NCBI GenBank assembly: GCA_964247735.1
Contig: CAXTVS010000054.1
Location: 1 to 21,752 of the forward strand
From: an uncultured Acetobacteraceae bacterium
Lineage (GTDB): Bacteria > Pseudomonadota > Alphaproteobacteria > Acetobacterales > Acetobacteraceae
DNA length: 21,752 nt
Direction: 5' to 3'
Positions 3,631 to 8,273 of this stretch are shown here, piece after piece. Both the position numbers and the translations under genes were made by a program. Below the pieces are notes generated by a model. It did not search any database and was not told the origin of the DNA. It was given only the letters and a program-made list of their open reading frames with translations. The stretch's first letter is position 1. Every line of letters starts with the position of its first letter.

Positions 3631-4527
3631 ATGCGTTTCGCAGCATATCGGCAGCGCGATGCCATGGGACTGGCAGCCGCGGCGCCCGATGGGCGCTTCC
3701 GTGGCTACGTCGCGACCGACAGCCGCTATCCTGGCAGCCTTAGCAGCCTCGTCGCCGAGGGTCCGGAGCGGCTGCTCGAGGCCGGCCGCATTCTGCTGGA
3801 CGGTGCCGAAGTCGATCCCGATGCCGTCGAGCTGCTGCCGCCCTTGCCAGCGCCGGGCAAGATCATCTGCATCGGCCTGAACTATGCTGACCACTCCGCT
3901 GAAAGCGGGTTTCAGGTGCCGGACTATCCGACGGTGTTCGGACGCTTTGCGTCGAGCCTGATCGGCCACGGGGCGCCGATCATGCGGCCGCGCGTGTCGC
4001 CGCAACTGGACTACGAGGGCGAGTTCGTGGCCGTGATCGGCCGACGCGGGCGGGACATCGGGCTGGCGCAGGCGCTGGGCCACGTGGTCGGCTACTCGCT
4101 GTTCAACGACGCGTCGATCCGCGACTACCAGTTCAAGGCGCCGCAGTGGACGGTGGGCAAGAACTTCGACGGCACCGGTGCCTTCGGCCCCTTTCTCGTC
4201 ACGGCCGACGCGCTGCCGCCAGGCTGCAAGGGATTGCGGCTTCGGACGCGGCTGAACGGCGAGGTGGTGCAGGATGCTTCCACCGACGACCTGGTGTTCG
4301 ACGTGGCGACGCTTATCTCGCTGCTCAGCACCGCCTTCACGCTGGAGCCGGGCGACGTGATCGTCACCGGAACTCCATCCGGCGTGGGGCTGGCCCGCAA
4401 GCCGCCGCTGTGGATGAAGGCCGGCGACGTTTGCGAGGTGGAGATGGACGGGCTCGGCATCCTGCGCAACCCGGTCGCCGACCAGGACGCGGTGGAAACT
4501 AGGGCGCCGCAGCACGTCGCCGCCTGA
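3631..4527 (+). CDS. Fumarylacetoacetate-hydrolase (FAH) family protein (COG0179-type 2-keto-4-pentenoate hydratase / acylpyruvate hydrolase-like).
   Basis: The 298-aa product has the FAH-fold motifs GKIICIGLNYADH and the metal-binding QLDYEGEFVAVIGRRGRDI (D-x-E-x-E). It also has the C-terminal GDVIVTGTPSGVG. A strong RBS precedes the start. This is the first gene of a tightly spaced 4-gene + strand operon. Confidence 0.9.
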   Translation: MRFAAYRQRDAMGLAAAAPDGRFRGYVATDSRYPGSLSSLVAEGPERLLEAGRILLDGAEVDPDAVELLPPLPAPGKIICIGLNYADHSAESGFQVPDYPTVFGRFASSLIGHGAPIMRPRVSPQLDYEGEFVAVIGRRGRDIGLAQALGHVVGYSLFNDASIRDYQFKAPQWTVGKNFDGTGAFGPFLVTADALPPGCKGLRLRTRLNGEVVQDASTDDLVFDVATLISLLSTAFTLEPGDVIVTGTPSGVGLARKPPLWMKAGDVCEVEMDGLGILRNPVADQDAVETRAPQHVAA

Positions 4528-4600
4528 CCAGCGCAGCCCGTTCTTCCGACAAAGCCGGCAGGGCGTGGCAGGAGACGTGGGCCGACCGGAGGAAAACAGA

Positions 4601-5587
4601 ATGACGCAGATCGGACATTTCATTGCCCCGTCCCGGCGCACCAACGCGCTGGGGGTCCACTCGCTCGACCATTTCGCCCTCGTGGTGCCGGACCTCCAAG
4701 AGGCCAGGCAGTACTACGAGGCGTTCGGGCTGGACGTGCGTGAGGACGGCGCTGCGCTGCATCTCTACACGCACGGCCATCCGCACCGCTGGGGCGTGCT
4801 GACGGAAGGGTCCCGCAAGGCGCTGCAATATCTGTCGTTCGGCATCTTCGCCGACGACGTGCAGCGCTTCCAGGCCCACCTCCAGGAGTGCCAGATCGAG
4901 CGTCTCGACCCGCCGCCCGGCCACGAAAGCAACGGCTTCTGGTTCCGCGACCCGGACGGGACGCTGGTCGAGCTGAAGGTGGCGGAGAAGTCGTCCCCGA
5001 GCGCCAAGTCGCCGGCCACCCTGGACAGCGTTCCGGCGAACCGGCGCGGCGCGCCGATGCGCGGGCAGGCCATGCCGGTGCAGCCGCGGCGCATGGCGCA
5101 CGTGCTGCTGTTCGCACGCGAGGTGACGCGGGCCATCGCTTTCTACACCCGCGTGCTCGGCCTGCGCCTGTCGGACGAGGCGGGCGGCGTGATCGCCTTC
5201 CTGCACGGCGTGCACGGCAGCGACCACCACATGGTCGCCTTCGCCAAGTCGGACGGTCCGGGCTTCCATCATTGCTCGTGGGACGTGGGCTCGATCGGCG
5301 ACATCGGCGTCGGCGCGGCACAGATGGCCGACAAGGGCTTCAGCGCCGGCTGGGGCCTTGGGCGTCACGTACTCGGCTCGAACTACTTCCACTACGTCCG
5401 CGATCCCTGGGGCAGCTACTGCGAGTATTCCTGCGACATCGATTACCTCGCCGCCGACAGGGATTGGGAGGGCGAGTCGCACAACGTGGAGAACAGCCTC
5501 TATCTGTGGGGCCCCGAGCCGCCGCTCGACTTCACCTTCAACTATGAGGCGTCGCCGGAAGCGCAGCTCGTGGCGCGCCGACGGTAA
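4601..5587 (+). CDS. Two-domain VOC-superfamily (type I) extradiol ring-cleavage dioxygenase (catechol 2,3-dioxygenase / (chloro)hydroquinone dioxygenase-like).
   Basis: The product is 328 aa. It has two glyoxalase/VOC beta-alpha-beta-beta-beta modules (VHSLDHFALVVPDLQEARQYYEAFGL... and RMAHVLLFAREVTRAIAFYTRVLGL...). The C-terminal module has candidate metal ligands (H in HVLLF, H in FHHCSWD, E in YVRDPWGSYCEYS), in the order seen in type I extradiol enzymes. The start is set at ATG 4601 with GGAGG 8 nt upstream. ATG 4565 in the table has no RBS. Confidence 0.85.
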   Translation: MTQIGHFIAPSRRTNALGVHSLDHFALVVPDLQEARQYYEAFGLDVREDGAALHLYTHGHPHRWGVLTEGSRKALQYLSFGIFADDVQRFQAHLQECQIERLDPPPGHESNGFWFRDPDGTLVELKVAEKSSPSAKSPATLDSVPANRRGAPMRGQAMPVQPRRMAHVLLFAREVTRAIAFYTRVLGLRLSDEAGGVIAFLHGVHGSDHHMVAFAKSDGPGFHHCSWDVGSIGDIGVGAAQMADKGFSAGWGLGRHVLGSNYFHYVRDPWGSYCEYSCDIDYLAADRDWEGESHNVENSLYLWGPEPPLDFTFNYEASPEAQLVARRR

Positions 5588-7279: not shown

Positions 7280-7298
7280 GCAGTATCGGAGTCGTGCC

Positions 7299-8273
7299 TT
7301 GACTGAGCAGCCCTTCCTGCCGCGTGTGGATGTGCACGCGCACTACCTTCCGGCCGGCTACCGCCGCGCTGCGGAGGCGGCAGGCCACCAACACCCGGAT
7401 GGAATGCCCGGCCTGCCGCGATGGGACGTGGACGCCGCGCTCGGCATGATGGATGGACTCAACATCCGCAGCGCCATGCTGTCCATCTCCTCTCCCGGCG
7501 TGCATTTCGGCGACGACCATGCGGCGCGCGCGCTGGCGCGCGAGGTGAACGAGGACGGCGCCCGGGCCGCCTCGGACCATCCGGGTCGCTTCGGATTATT
7601 CGCTGCGCTGCCGCTGCCCGACATCGACGGCTCCCTGGAAGAAGCCGCCTACGCCCTGGACGTGCTCGGGGCCGACGGGGTCACGGTCGAGACCAACCAC
7701 CACGGCCTCTACATGGGCGACCCGCAGCTCGACCCGCTGTTCGCCGAGCTCAACCGCCGGCGCGCCGTGGTGTTCATGCACCCTACCTCGCCCAGCTGTC
7801 CGTGCTGCCAGACGCTGTCGCTTGGCTATCCGCGGCCGATGATCGAGTTCATGTTCGAGACGACGCGTGCAGTCGCCAACCTGCTGCTGACCGGCACGCT
7901 GGACCGCTTCCCGGACATACGGCTGATCGTGCCGCATGCCGGCGCGGCGGTGCCGGTCCTGGCGGACCGGATCGCCGGCCTGTCGCCTGCCCTGACGTTG
8001 CCGAGCCCGGTGGAGCCGGATCGGCTCTTCGCCACCCTGCGTCGGCTGTATTACGACTTGGCGGGCTTTCCGCTGCCGCGTCTGGCACCGGCGCTGCTGC
8101 AGATCGCCGATCCGGGACGCATCCTCTACGGCAGCGACTGGCCGTTCACGCCGCTGCCGATCGCGACGCGCCTGGCCGGCGACATCGACGCCACGCCGCT
8201 GTTCGACGCGTCGCTGCGCCGCCGCATCCTGCAGGACAATGCCCTCGACCTGTTCCCACGCCTGCGCGGCTGA
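7299..8273 (+). CDS. Amidohydrolase-2 (ACMSD-family) metal-dependent non-oxidative decarboxylase/hydrolase. It is like gamma-resorcylate, 2,3-dihydroxybenzoate, 5-carboxyvanillate or salicylate decarboxylases.
   Basis: The N-terminal VDVHAHYLP (HxH metal motif) and C-terminal YGSDWPF are characteristic of PF04909. The product is 324 aa, a typical size. The start is TTG at 7299, with GGAG 7 nt upstream. It lies 20 nt after the hydroxylase stop, so it is probably co-transcribed. Confidence 0.8.
   Translation: MTEQPFLPRVDVHAHYLPAGYRRAAEAAGHQHPDGMPGLPRWDVDAALGMMDGLNIRSAMLSISSPGVHFGDDHAARALAREVNEDGARAASDHPGRFGLFAALPLPDIDGSLEEAAYALDVLGADGVTVETNHHGLYMGDPQLDPLFAELNRRRAVVFMHPTSPSCPCCQTLSLGYPRPMIEFMFETTRAVANLLLTGTLDRFPDIRLIVPHAGAAVPVLADRIAGLSPALTLPSPVEPDRLFATLRRLYYDLAGFPLPRLAPALLQIADPGRILYGSDWPFTPLPIATRLAGDIDATPLFDASLRRRILQDNALDLFPRLRG

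Follow-up and report, generated by a model that had tools for sequence, protein, structure and literature searches.

A conserved Acetobacteraceae gene cluster with a predicted route from orsellinate-type acids to pyruvate and acetoacetate

A cluster of aromatic-catabolic genes was analysed in a contig of an uncultured Acetobacteraceae bacterium (CAXTVS010000054.1); the whole 21.7-kb stretch of 21,752 nucleotides, with about 68% G+C, is called the window below. The gene cluster is real and conserved, and its most likely function would be to let the bacterium degrade a hydroxy-aromatic acid of plant or lichen type, with pyruvate and acetoacetate as the end products. In the scheme proposed here, to which a probability of about one half is given, an orsellinate-type acid would be converted through orcinol, trihydroxytoluene and trioxoheptanoate to these two products. 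Orsellinate itself ranks lower as the substrate and is the best guess for an alkyl-resorcylic acid locus under GntR control. The locus appears to be modular, with a lower pathway (trihydroxytoluene, extradiol cleavage, FAH-family hydrolysis) joined to a decarboxylase entry and an acetoacetate exit.

Gene organization and conservation

The features at the centre of the cluster are as follows:

2778-3515, minus strand: GntR/FCD transcriptional regulator, divergent from the operon (Pfam GntR and FCD)
3562-3590, no strand: conserved promoter/operator-like element, ATAATCGATGATCCATTGACTGATAGACT, with a TTGAC box and two TAGA(T/C) boxes
3631-4527, plus strand: FAH-family gene (Pfam FAA_hydrolase, E 4.5e-69, 232.8 bits)
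4565/4601-5587, plus strand: VOC dioxygenase gene (Pfam Glyoxalase/VOC, two domains, E 3.2e-23)
5645-7279, plus strand: FAD hydroxylase gene (Pfam FAD_binding_3, E 1.9e-60, 205 bits)
7299-8273, plus strand: Amidohydro_2 (ACMSD-family) gene (Pfam Amidohydro_2 PF04909, E 1.7e-32, 113.8 bits)

The original prediction, made from the sequence alone, had described four same-strand genes at 3631-8273 and a divergently transcribed GntR/FCD regulator. All four open reading frames (ORFs) were present, each with a strong Pfam match for its product, and the regulator gave GntR and FCD matches on the minus strand. The four genes are separated, from 5' to 3', by 37-73, 57 and 19 bp, and the ATG at 4601 as the start of the VOC gene fits the 328-aa length of the homologues.

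The neighbourhood was surveyed in 80 species-level genomes, which were gathered with the VOC protein and screened by tblastn; their loci are cited by number (L001 and so on) where needed. The order GntR / FAH, VOC, FAD hydroxylase, (MFS), Amidohydro_2 recurred in four other Acetobacteraceae-type genomes (L001, L007, L009 and L012) with 60-86% protein identity, and partial versions of the four-gene set were found in L015 and L017. The recurrence at this identity indicates that the linkage is conserved and not due to chance. In L015, the spacer between the GntR and VOC genes (4762-5144) still codes the C-terminal end of an FAH protein (GDIIVTGTPSGVGLA...), and hence holds a truncated FAH remnant. 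About half of the surveyed loci had the FAH gene directly 5' of VOC. The hydroxylase beside the dioxygenase-hydrolase pair varied, being of the window type, MhqA-like, or two-component and HpaB-like, which suggests a constant VOC-FAH core that can be supplied by exchangeable hydroxylases. In Massilia putida, a 57% homologue of the window hydroxylase adjoins FAH-VOC. In addition, most of eight loci from Xanthobacteraceae and Rhodoplanes metagenome-assembled genomes (MAGs; L034, L040, L043, L047, L048, L056, L062 and L076, at ~7800-10950) carried two Amidohydro_2 paralogues directly 5' of VOC. These paralogues had ~26% and 36-40% identity to the window enzyme, no FAH gene adjoined VOC, and the loci seem to represent another form of the module.

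The span 3631-8273 had been taken as the full extent of the unit, and this proved too narrow, as the unit reaches well beyond 8273. The following genes (8846 to ~14600) are probably part of the same functional unit:

8846-10024, plus strand: thiolase, acetoacetyl-CoA type (Pfam Thiolase_N and Thiolase_C)
10073-10804, plus strand: scoA, 3-oxoacid CoA-transferase subunit A (Pfam CoA_trans)
10804-11448, plus strand: scoB, 3-oxoacid CoA-transferase subunit B (Pfam CoA_trans; TIGR02428 pcaJ_scoB_fam 307 bits, cut-off 243)
11633-12865, plus strand: MFS transporter, monocarboxylate / oxalate-formate type (Pfam MFS_1; NCBIfam SfMCT 138 bits, under cut-off)
12990-14600 (approximate; ORF open from 12840, likely start M51), plus strand: exported Amidohydro_1/3-family hydrolase (Pfam Amidohydro_1 and Amidohydro_3)

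Among the 80 loci, the acetoacetate genes (scoAB and thiolase), the MFS transporter, the exported amidohydrolase and a porin recur near the dioxygenase-hydrolase pair in three bacterial groups. The scoAB genes adjoin FAH-VOC in four Acidobacteriaceae loci (L053, L063, L068 and L073) and two Cytophagales loci (L066 and L067), and the thiolase gene is beside FAH-VOC in L079 and the same four Acidobacteriaceae loci. In the Lichenicola locus L006, whose site has no FAH gene, scoAB is near VOC, and the thiolase gene (89% nucleotide identity) is syntenic with VOC. The linkage of scoAB and thiolase to VOC or FAH-VOC was found, with differing gene orders, in three distant groups: Acetobacteraceae (the window and L006), Acidobacteriaceae and Cytophagales. 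The chance of a scoAB locus within a 20-kb neighbourhood was roughly estimated at ~1%; together with the direct adjacency in three independent lineages, this makes a coincidence unlikely. Moreover, L063 (Terriglobus) combined ScoAB, thiolase, FAH, VOC, FAD hydroxylase, MFS and Amidohydro_2 genes with a TetR regulator, an independent recurrence of the full set under a different regulator.

The regulator gene begins with the ATG at 3515, which leaves an intergenic region of 115 bp at 3516-3630, exactly where the original prediction had put it. The window GntR protein was 63-80% identical to the regulators of eight loci (L001, L006, L007, L009, L012, L013, L015 and L017). The element at 3562-3590 was found by aligning the GntR-operon intergenic regions of nine loci; it includes a small palindrome at 3562-3573 and may serve as promoter or operator. 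A consensus promoter and terminator scan gave no match. A second copy of the element is present in L001, 5' of a P450 gene. This CYP199-like P450 (L001 3629-4828; 252 bits to CYP199 family structures) sits between the regulator and FAH genes. At the positions of R92, S95, R243 and S244, the carboxylate anchors of CYP199A4, it has A, G, D and Y in the phmmer alignment, and it was not used as a sign of a feeder reaction for 4-methoxybenzoates such as everninic acid.

The predicted pathway and its enzymes

In the proposed pathway, the Amidohydro_2 enzyme would remove CO2 non-oxidatively from orsellinate (2,4-dihydroxy-6-methylbenzoate) to form orcinol, and the FAD hydroxylase would add a hydroxyl ortho to a phenol group of orcinol to form 2,3,5-trihydroxytoluene. 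The MhqB-like extradiol dioxygenase would open the ring next to the vicinal diol, with the acylpyruvate 2,4,6-trioxoheptanoate as the product. The FAH-family enzyme would hydrolyze its C3-C4 bond, in a reaction of the FAHD1 / diketo-rhamnonate hydrolase type, into pyruvate and acetoacetate, and ScoAB and the thiolase, encoded just 3', would convert the acetoacetate into two acetyl-CoA. The release of acetoacetate by C3-C4 hydrolysis would explain the presence of the scoAB and thiolase genes. Every substrate and product, and the position of the FAH cleavage, are here predicted from sequence. The order of decarboxylation, hydroxylation, ring cleavage by the VOC enzyme and processing by the FAH-family enzyme had been suggested before and is probably right.

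The Amidohydro_2 protein is a predicted metal-dependent non-oxidative decarboxylase, which would convert an orsellinate-type acid into a phenol and CO2. Its best match in the PDB was the uncharacterised 2f6k (198 bits), followed by gamma-resorcylate, iso-orotate, 5-carboxyvanillate, ACMS, 2,3-dihydroxybenzoate and salicylate decarboxylases. The identity to gamma-resorcylate decarboxylase (2dvt) was ~25% (79 bits), with HxH here and ExH there. The AlphaFold model (pLDDT 86.8) ranked the relatives by fold as the sequence search had done, with a TM of 0.87 to 2f6k and of about 0.8 to ACMSD and gamma-resorcylate decarboxylase, and the closest characterised proteins by both sequence and fold were without exception non-oxidative decarboxylases of (hydroxy)aromatic acids. 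The metal/catalytic residues H13, H15, H161, H213 and D280 align with 2f6k and were invariant in 25 homologues. Homologues with 63-69% identity carry the JGI label '6-methylsalicylate decarboxylase'. An ACMSD-family orsellinate decarboxylase was documented in Cladonia uncialis (PMC12967840), and another, from Arthrobacter sp. K8, is cited in a passage of PMC10176493. According to these passages, the Cladonia uncialis Cu-decarboxylase and the Arthrobacter enzyme are Zn-dependent, convert orsellinate to orcinol and belong to the superfamily and SCOP family of 2f6k/LP2961; no catabolic operon around them is reported in the texts cited. Compared with the window protein, the Cladonia uncialis enzyme has Glu/His in place of His13/His15.

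Most of the close decarboxylase orthologues possessed a Tat-like N-terminal signal (e.g. LGRRAALGGLFGTAALSCTGVRAQ), namely those of L007, L008, L009, L013 and L015 (76-86% identity) and of L090 (63%), where the twin-arginine signals were judged by eye. The respective genes include L007 ~14810-15877, L008 ~16600-17685, L009 ~12995-14056 and L090 5676-6893. The copies in the window, L001 and L012 had no signal peptide, and in L001 and L012 an extra MFS transporter gene is found in the cluster. The Tat-like signals imply a periplasmic non-oxidative decarboxylase in most close orthologues. They also place the decarboxylase before the cytoplasmic NADH- and O2-dependent steps, that is, at the entry of the predicted pathway.

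The hydroxylase (544 aa) is a single-component group A FAD aromatic hydroxylase with a C-terminal extension, and it is predicted to be a phenol ortho-hydroxylase converting orcinol to 2,3,5-trihydroxytoluene. It passed the NCBIfam subfamily model NF004829 (534.6 vs the cut-off of 390), a subfamily named after 3-hydroxyphenylpropionate hydroxylase. However, all four MhpA equivalog models remained under their cut-offs (NF004831, 307/546; NF004828, 247/853; NF004827, 207/966; NF004830, 205/1135). The earlier description as MhpA-like is thus correct at the level of the subfamily, but an identity as MhpA was rejected. The best solved relative was 2-hydroxybiphenyl 3-monooxygenase.

The VOC protein is predicted to be an MhqB-like type I extradiol dioxygenase that would cleave a trihydroxytoluene-type ring. 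It had 48% identity over 306 aa to MhqB (BSFA1_83710) and 52% to the paralogue BSFA1_84310. The features of the two-domain type I extradiol enzymes were present: two Glyoxalase stretches, the triad of H167, H224 and E275, and a catalytic His/Tyr in the C-terminal module. In 20 homologues, H167, H209/H210, H224, H256, Y265 and E275 were invariant, and the spacing of the metal and catalytic residues resembles that of XylE. There was no close solved relative, and the best PDB match was 3b59 (67 bits). The predicted structure was a moderate model (pLDDT 75), whose top 50 fold matches in Foldseek were catechol-type type I extradiol dioxygenases, except the uncharacterised 3b59; C23O, LapB, AphC, BphC and HPCD were matched at E 1e-15 to 1e-18. 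This likeness fits a substrate with a vicinal diol. A dioxygenase of the PcpA/LinE type was rejected, since no PcpA-type chain was among the 23 PDB sequence matches at E<=0.01 or the top 50 Foldseek matches, presuming that the PDB copy searched holds a PcpA structure. The suggested analogy with PcpB, PcpA and LinE was likewise rejected.

The FAH protein falls in the group of HpaG, FAHD1 and diketo-rhamnonate hydrolase, and its top NCBIfam match was a 2,4-diketo-acid hydrolase releasing pyruvate. H88, E91, E129, E131, D160, R164, Q167 and K177 align with H30, E33, E71, E73, D102, R106, Q109 and K123 of human FAHD1, whose sequence was checked to be identical to 6fog; these presumably form a His-Glu catalytic dyad, a Glu/Glu/Asp metal site and the substrate residues Arg/Gln/Lys. 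As all FAHD1 acylpyruvase residues are kept, the protein seems equipped for acylpyruvate-type C-C hydrolysis, and it is predicted to act in this way on the ring-fission product. An FAH-type C-C hydrolase needs a 1,3-diketone, which makes a 1,2,4-trihydroxybenzene more probable as the substrate of ring cleavage than either a simple catechol or a hydroquinone; of the earlier proposal that a phenol is hydroxylated to one of the latter two, the hydroxylation of the phenol is retained. The thiolase scored 548.7 bits with the NCBIfam model of acetyl-CoA C-acetyltransferase and 362 bits with that of the 3-oxoadipyl-CoA thiolase PcaF, a gap which favours acetoacetate over 3-oxoadipate. The acetoacetate branch is drawn from gene context, and the FAH-family enzyme could in principle also give acetate and acetylpyruvate.

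Comparison with known systems and alternative explanations

The proposed intermediates orcinol, 2,3,5-trihydroxytoluene and 2,4,6-trioxoheptanoate are the same as those of the orcinol pathway of Pseudomonas putida ORC, which also has pyruvate at its end. The classical route, described by Chapman and Ribbons in 1976, reportedly employs two hydrolases and yields two acetate and pyruvate, whereas the single FAH gene and the acetoacetate-activating genes of the window suggest pyruvate and acetoacetate. For three of the four classical activities (orcinol hydroxylase, trihydroxytoluene 1,2-dioxygenase, trioxoheptanoate hydrolase and acetylpyruvate hydrolase), the window has candidate genes. In the searchable literature, no gene assignment was found for the orcinol hydroxylase, the trihydroxytoluene dioxygenase or the trioxoheptanoate hydrolase, and a search for reference sequences of the Pseudomonas putida ORC orcinol enzymes found none. 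In the lower 2,4-dinitrotoluene pathway, the extradiol enzyme DntD acts on 2,4,5-trihydroxytoluene and is followed by the FAH-family DntG, with pyruvate and methylmalonate semialdehyde as products. Likened by description, it has the same logic of extradiol cleavage of a trihydroxytoluene and pyruvate release by an FAH-family enzyme, although the isomer and the products differ.

The route was said to differ from the gamma-resorcylate and mhp routes, and this is borne out by the annotated window ORFs, among which no hydroxyquinol 1,2-dioxygenase, maleylacetate reductase, LigB-type dioxygenase or MhpC-type hydrolase accompanies the cluster. The mhp route was rejected on the lack of MhpB- and MhpC-type genes and on the MhpA equivalog scores. 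In the gra system of Rhizobium and the tsd system of Rhodococcus jostii RHA1, an ACMSD-family non-oxidative decarboxylase is likewise followed by flavin hydroxylation of the resorcinol product to a benzenetriol. An intradiol hydroxyquinol 1,2-dioxygenase and maleylacetate reductase then lead to 3-oxoadipate, whereas the window route would proceed by extradiol cleavage and C-C hydrolysis.

A non-methylated substrate is unlikely. In this case, 2,4- or 2,6-dihydroxybenzoate would be converted through resorcinol, hydroxyquinol and an acylpyruvate into pyruvate and a C3 fragment (malonate semialdehyde), and scoAB and thiolase would be mere neighbours. Of the solved relatives with a known function, gamma-resorcylate decarboxylase matches the window decarboxylase best, the Cladonia enzyme also acts on 2,4-dihydroxybenzoate, and a resorcinol route with meta-type cleavage exists in orcinol-grown Pseudomonas putida. 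However, the low identity to gamma-resorcylate decarboxylase and the different metal motif (HxH vs ExH) speak against it, and it would leave unexplained why scoAB and thiolase are linked to FAH-VOC, in independent arrangements, in three lineages.

Plasmid 2 of Burkholderia sp. SFA1, with its mhq cluster, was found by a tblastn search against plasmids. This cluster has the order GntR / FAH (BSFA1_83730) - mhqA - mhqB - hydrolase and is induced by fenitrothion, and the Mhq route was drawn from 2-methylhydroquinone through trihydroxytoluene to 2,4,6-trioxoheptanoate, citing the Pseudomonas putida orcinol pathway (PMC8571283). Like the mhq cluster of the fenitrothion-degrading Burkholderia strains NF100, YI23 and SFA1, the window has a divergent GntR gene (42% identity to BSFA1_83740), and its FAH gene (63% to BSFA1_83730, the fenitrothion-induced gene beside mhqA) and MhqB-type VOC gene (48%) share one operon with a large flavin hydroxylase gene. 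The combination of enzymes, earlier regarded as unusual, thus has a core that is already known. The hydroxylase differs, as the window enzyme belongs to another subfamily and has only 26% identity to MhqA, whose best NCBIfam match was NF004780 (371.6 bits, under its cut-off) and not NF004829. This pattern suggests that the lower pathway is common to both and that the enzyme making the ring-cleavage substrate differs. Furthermore, the isochorismatase-like hydrolase BSFA1_83700 had no homologue in the window or the 80 related loci by tblastn. Unlike mhq, the window locus adds the Amidohydro_2 decarboxylase, scoAB and thiolase, the MFS transporter and the exported amidohydrolase; it is beside chromosomal-type genes, whereas mhq is on a conjugative pesticide plasmid. 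A second, uncharacterised paralogous set on SFA1 plasmid 2 (L086 8346-13903, BSFA1_84300-84340) has the order LysR / monooxygenase - VOC - FAH - MFS - oxidoreductase, and its VOC protein is nearer to that of the window than MhqB is (52% vs 48%).

A route of the Mhq kind would start from a methylated salicylate or gentisate (e.g. 6-methylsalicylate or methylgentisate) and lead through m-cresol or methylhydroquinone to trihydroxytoluene and the same lower pathway. It would agree with VOC, FAH and GntR being homologous to their mhq counterparts and with the JGI label on the decarboxylase homologues, but it is improbable, because m-cresol would require two hydroxylations with one hydroxylase encoded, and this hydroxylase is far from MhqA in both identity and NCBIfam subfamily.

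Very little probability is given to the Amidohydro_2 protein acting hydrolytically, on an ester or lactone bond of a conjugate or on a C-C bond like LigY, with the carboxyl, if any, removed oxidatively by the FAD enzyme. Hydratases and C-C hydrolases do belong to the Amidohydro_2 family as well, with LigJ and LigY among the weak matches, the nearest structure 2f6k is uncharacterised, and by chemical reasoning ipso-hydroxylation of orsellinate with CO2 loss would also give 2,3,5-trihydroxytoluene. However, LigJ (a hydratase) and LigY (a C-C hydrolase) reached only 24-33 bits, compared with 54-79 bits for the best-scoring decarboxylase groups, and the named proteins in the top 50 fold matches of the model were all decarboxylases, with neither LigJ nor LigY. 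Tat-like export of the orthologues would leave them without access to the cytoplasmic ring-fission product, which argues against a LigY-like role. Moreover, the known decarboxylating flavin hydroxylases have ~400 aa, whereas the window hydroxylase has 544 aa and is of the phenol-hydroxylase type.

A longer side chain, as in a 6-alkyl- or 6-carboxyethyl-resorcylic compound (divarinic acid, olivetolic acid or 3-(3,5-dihydroxyphenyl)propionate) that would supply a longer 3-oxoacid or 3-oxoadipate to the CoA-transferase and thiolase, could draw on the ScoB family also covering PcaJ, on the name of the hydroxylase subfamily and on an analogous Pseudomonas cluster with a beta-keto-acid cleavage enzyme (BKACE) instead of ScoAB, but the acetoacetyl-CoA type of the thiolase and the lack of beta-oxidation genes in the window make it hardly probable. 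The analogous cluster (L004 3253-11002, Pseudomonas vanderleydeniana CP077093) consists of TetR, outer-membrane channel, BKACE, FAH (41%), VOC (32%) and two-component hydroxylase genes, with a 62% decarboxylase homologue close by. Its BKACE passed the NCBIfam equivalog 3,5-dioxohexanoate:acetyl-CoA transferase (524 bits vs the cut-off of 430). This implies triacetate, for which no derivation from trioxoheptanoate by one hydrolysis was found; L004 was rejected as an analogue with the same substrate and probably acts on a different one.

Several points weigh against the proposed scheme from an orsellinate-type acid to pyruvate and acetoacetate. Chapman and Ribbons (1976) are said to have found that trioxoheptanoate gives acetate and acetylpyruvate, not acetoacetate. 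For 2f6k, the solved structure nearest to the decarboxylase, no function is assigned, and a 69% homologue of the decarboxylase occurs in an unrelated molybdenum-hydroxylase context (L003). The substrate of MhqB and the last two Mhq steps were called undetermined by the authors (PMC8571283). In L006 (Lichenicola sp. MAG OZ240668, 8941-14015), the order is GntR / VOC-thiolase-scoA-scoB, with 82-89% nucleotide identity to the window across GntR, VOC and thiolase-scoAB, and the FAH, hydroxylase and decarboxylase genes are absent at the site. This gene content is hard to square with a strictly linear pathway; the difference may reflect gene loss in L006 or insertion of a module in the window lineage. 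Between the decarboxylase and thiolase genes there is a G+C-rich gap of 572 bp (8274-8845) with no recognised gene, where no convincing ORF, repeats, Rfam match, promoter or terminator was found and which has no counterpart in L006. The CYP199-like P450 of L001 lends no support to a 4-methoxybenzoate feeder. Finally, members of the VOC family are also common in ordinary soil Rhizobiales that have no decarboxylase, so that the association with lichens is circumstantial.

Transport, neighbouring genes and habitat

Homologues of the MFS transporter with 51-57% identity were found near FAH-VOC in six loci (L014, L057, L066, L067, L069 and L083), and the transporter is tentatively regarded as a candidate acid importer. 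The N-terminus of the exported amidohydrolase, RRGWRRSLLAAMTLAAAAFVPVAARSARA/DA, resembles an export signal. Distant relatives of the protein include amide hydrolases, for instance bottromycin amidohydrolase and LlADH. Its homologues (38-50% identity) are beside VOC-FAH in L057, L073, L077, L089 and L090, from Granulicella, Edaphobacter, Massilia and lichen Burkholderia, and two Betaproteobacterial copies have lipoprotein-like signals. As a speculation, it might be an upstream enzyme that splits a conjugate, perhaps a depside, to free the aromatic acid. The roles of the transporter, the amidohydrolase and the porin are suggested by sequence likeness and genomic position.

The remaining features of the window are the following:

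173-748: fragmentary IS4/IS5-family transposase ORF (DDE_Tnp_1, DUF4096) at the contig start, beside the porin gene
776-2332, minus strand: OprB-family outer-membrane porin (Pfam OprB, E 2e-30)
14584-18730: three successive SPFH/Band-7 domain genes (669, 352 and 355 aa) 3' of the amidohydrolase gene, with no obvious catabolic link
19111-20097 and 20097-20891, both minus strand: alpha/beta-hydrolase paired with a TetR regulator

Porin homologues (45-61% identity) are beside VOC in L006, L009, L014 and L084, and an OprB gene is near VOC in L091; the porin is tentatively considered a peripheral member and a possible uptake channel. A 63% homologue of the alpha/beta-hydrolase, with a signal peptide, is found near the cluster in L009 (5993-7102), and weaker ones in L014 and L052. 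The window alpha/beta-hydrolase may be another candidate esterase for the upstream step.

The nearest genome to the window was a Lichenicola MAG, and the names of several related MAGs appear to match the style of a lichen-metagenome study. VOC homologues were present in the lichen isolates Burkholderia sp. PAMC 26561, Burkholderia sp. PAMC 28687 and Paraburkholderia sp. D15, and in PAMC 26561 (L090) the decarboxylase, FAH, VOC and exported amidohydrolase genes are together. Lichens accumulate orsellinate depsides. In addition, the four bacterial families most common in lichens include Acetobacteraceae and Acidobacteriaceae (PMC11542873).

A wider and more doubtful proposal is that bacterial orsellinate/orcinol catabolism has its so far unassigned genetic basis in this locus and its relatives. 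Acetobacteraceae, Acidobacteriaceae and Burkholderiaceae associated with lichens would then feed on lichen depsides by means of an exported amidohydrolase or esterase, a mostly Tat-exported periplasmic decarboxylase producing membrane-permeant orcinol, and one-step FAH cleavage of trioxoheptanoate to pyruvate and acetoacetate, which would be a variant of the pathway of 1976. If the reading of the locus is wrong, what remains is a conserved aromatic catabolic operon of an ordinary kind. If it is right, genes would be assigned to the fifty-year-old orcinol pathway, for which no gene assignment was found in the searchable literature, and candidates would be available for the Mhq steps that their authors left undetermined. 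Annotations such as 'MhpA', 'OPET decarboxylase', 'VOC family protein' and 'amidohydrolase' would be corrected on thousands of proteins from soil and lichen metagenomes. Furthermore, periplasmic decarboxylation would represent an uptake strategy, and common lichen bacteria would have a concrete route for using the most abundant secondary metabolites of the mycobiont.

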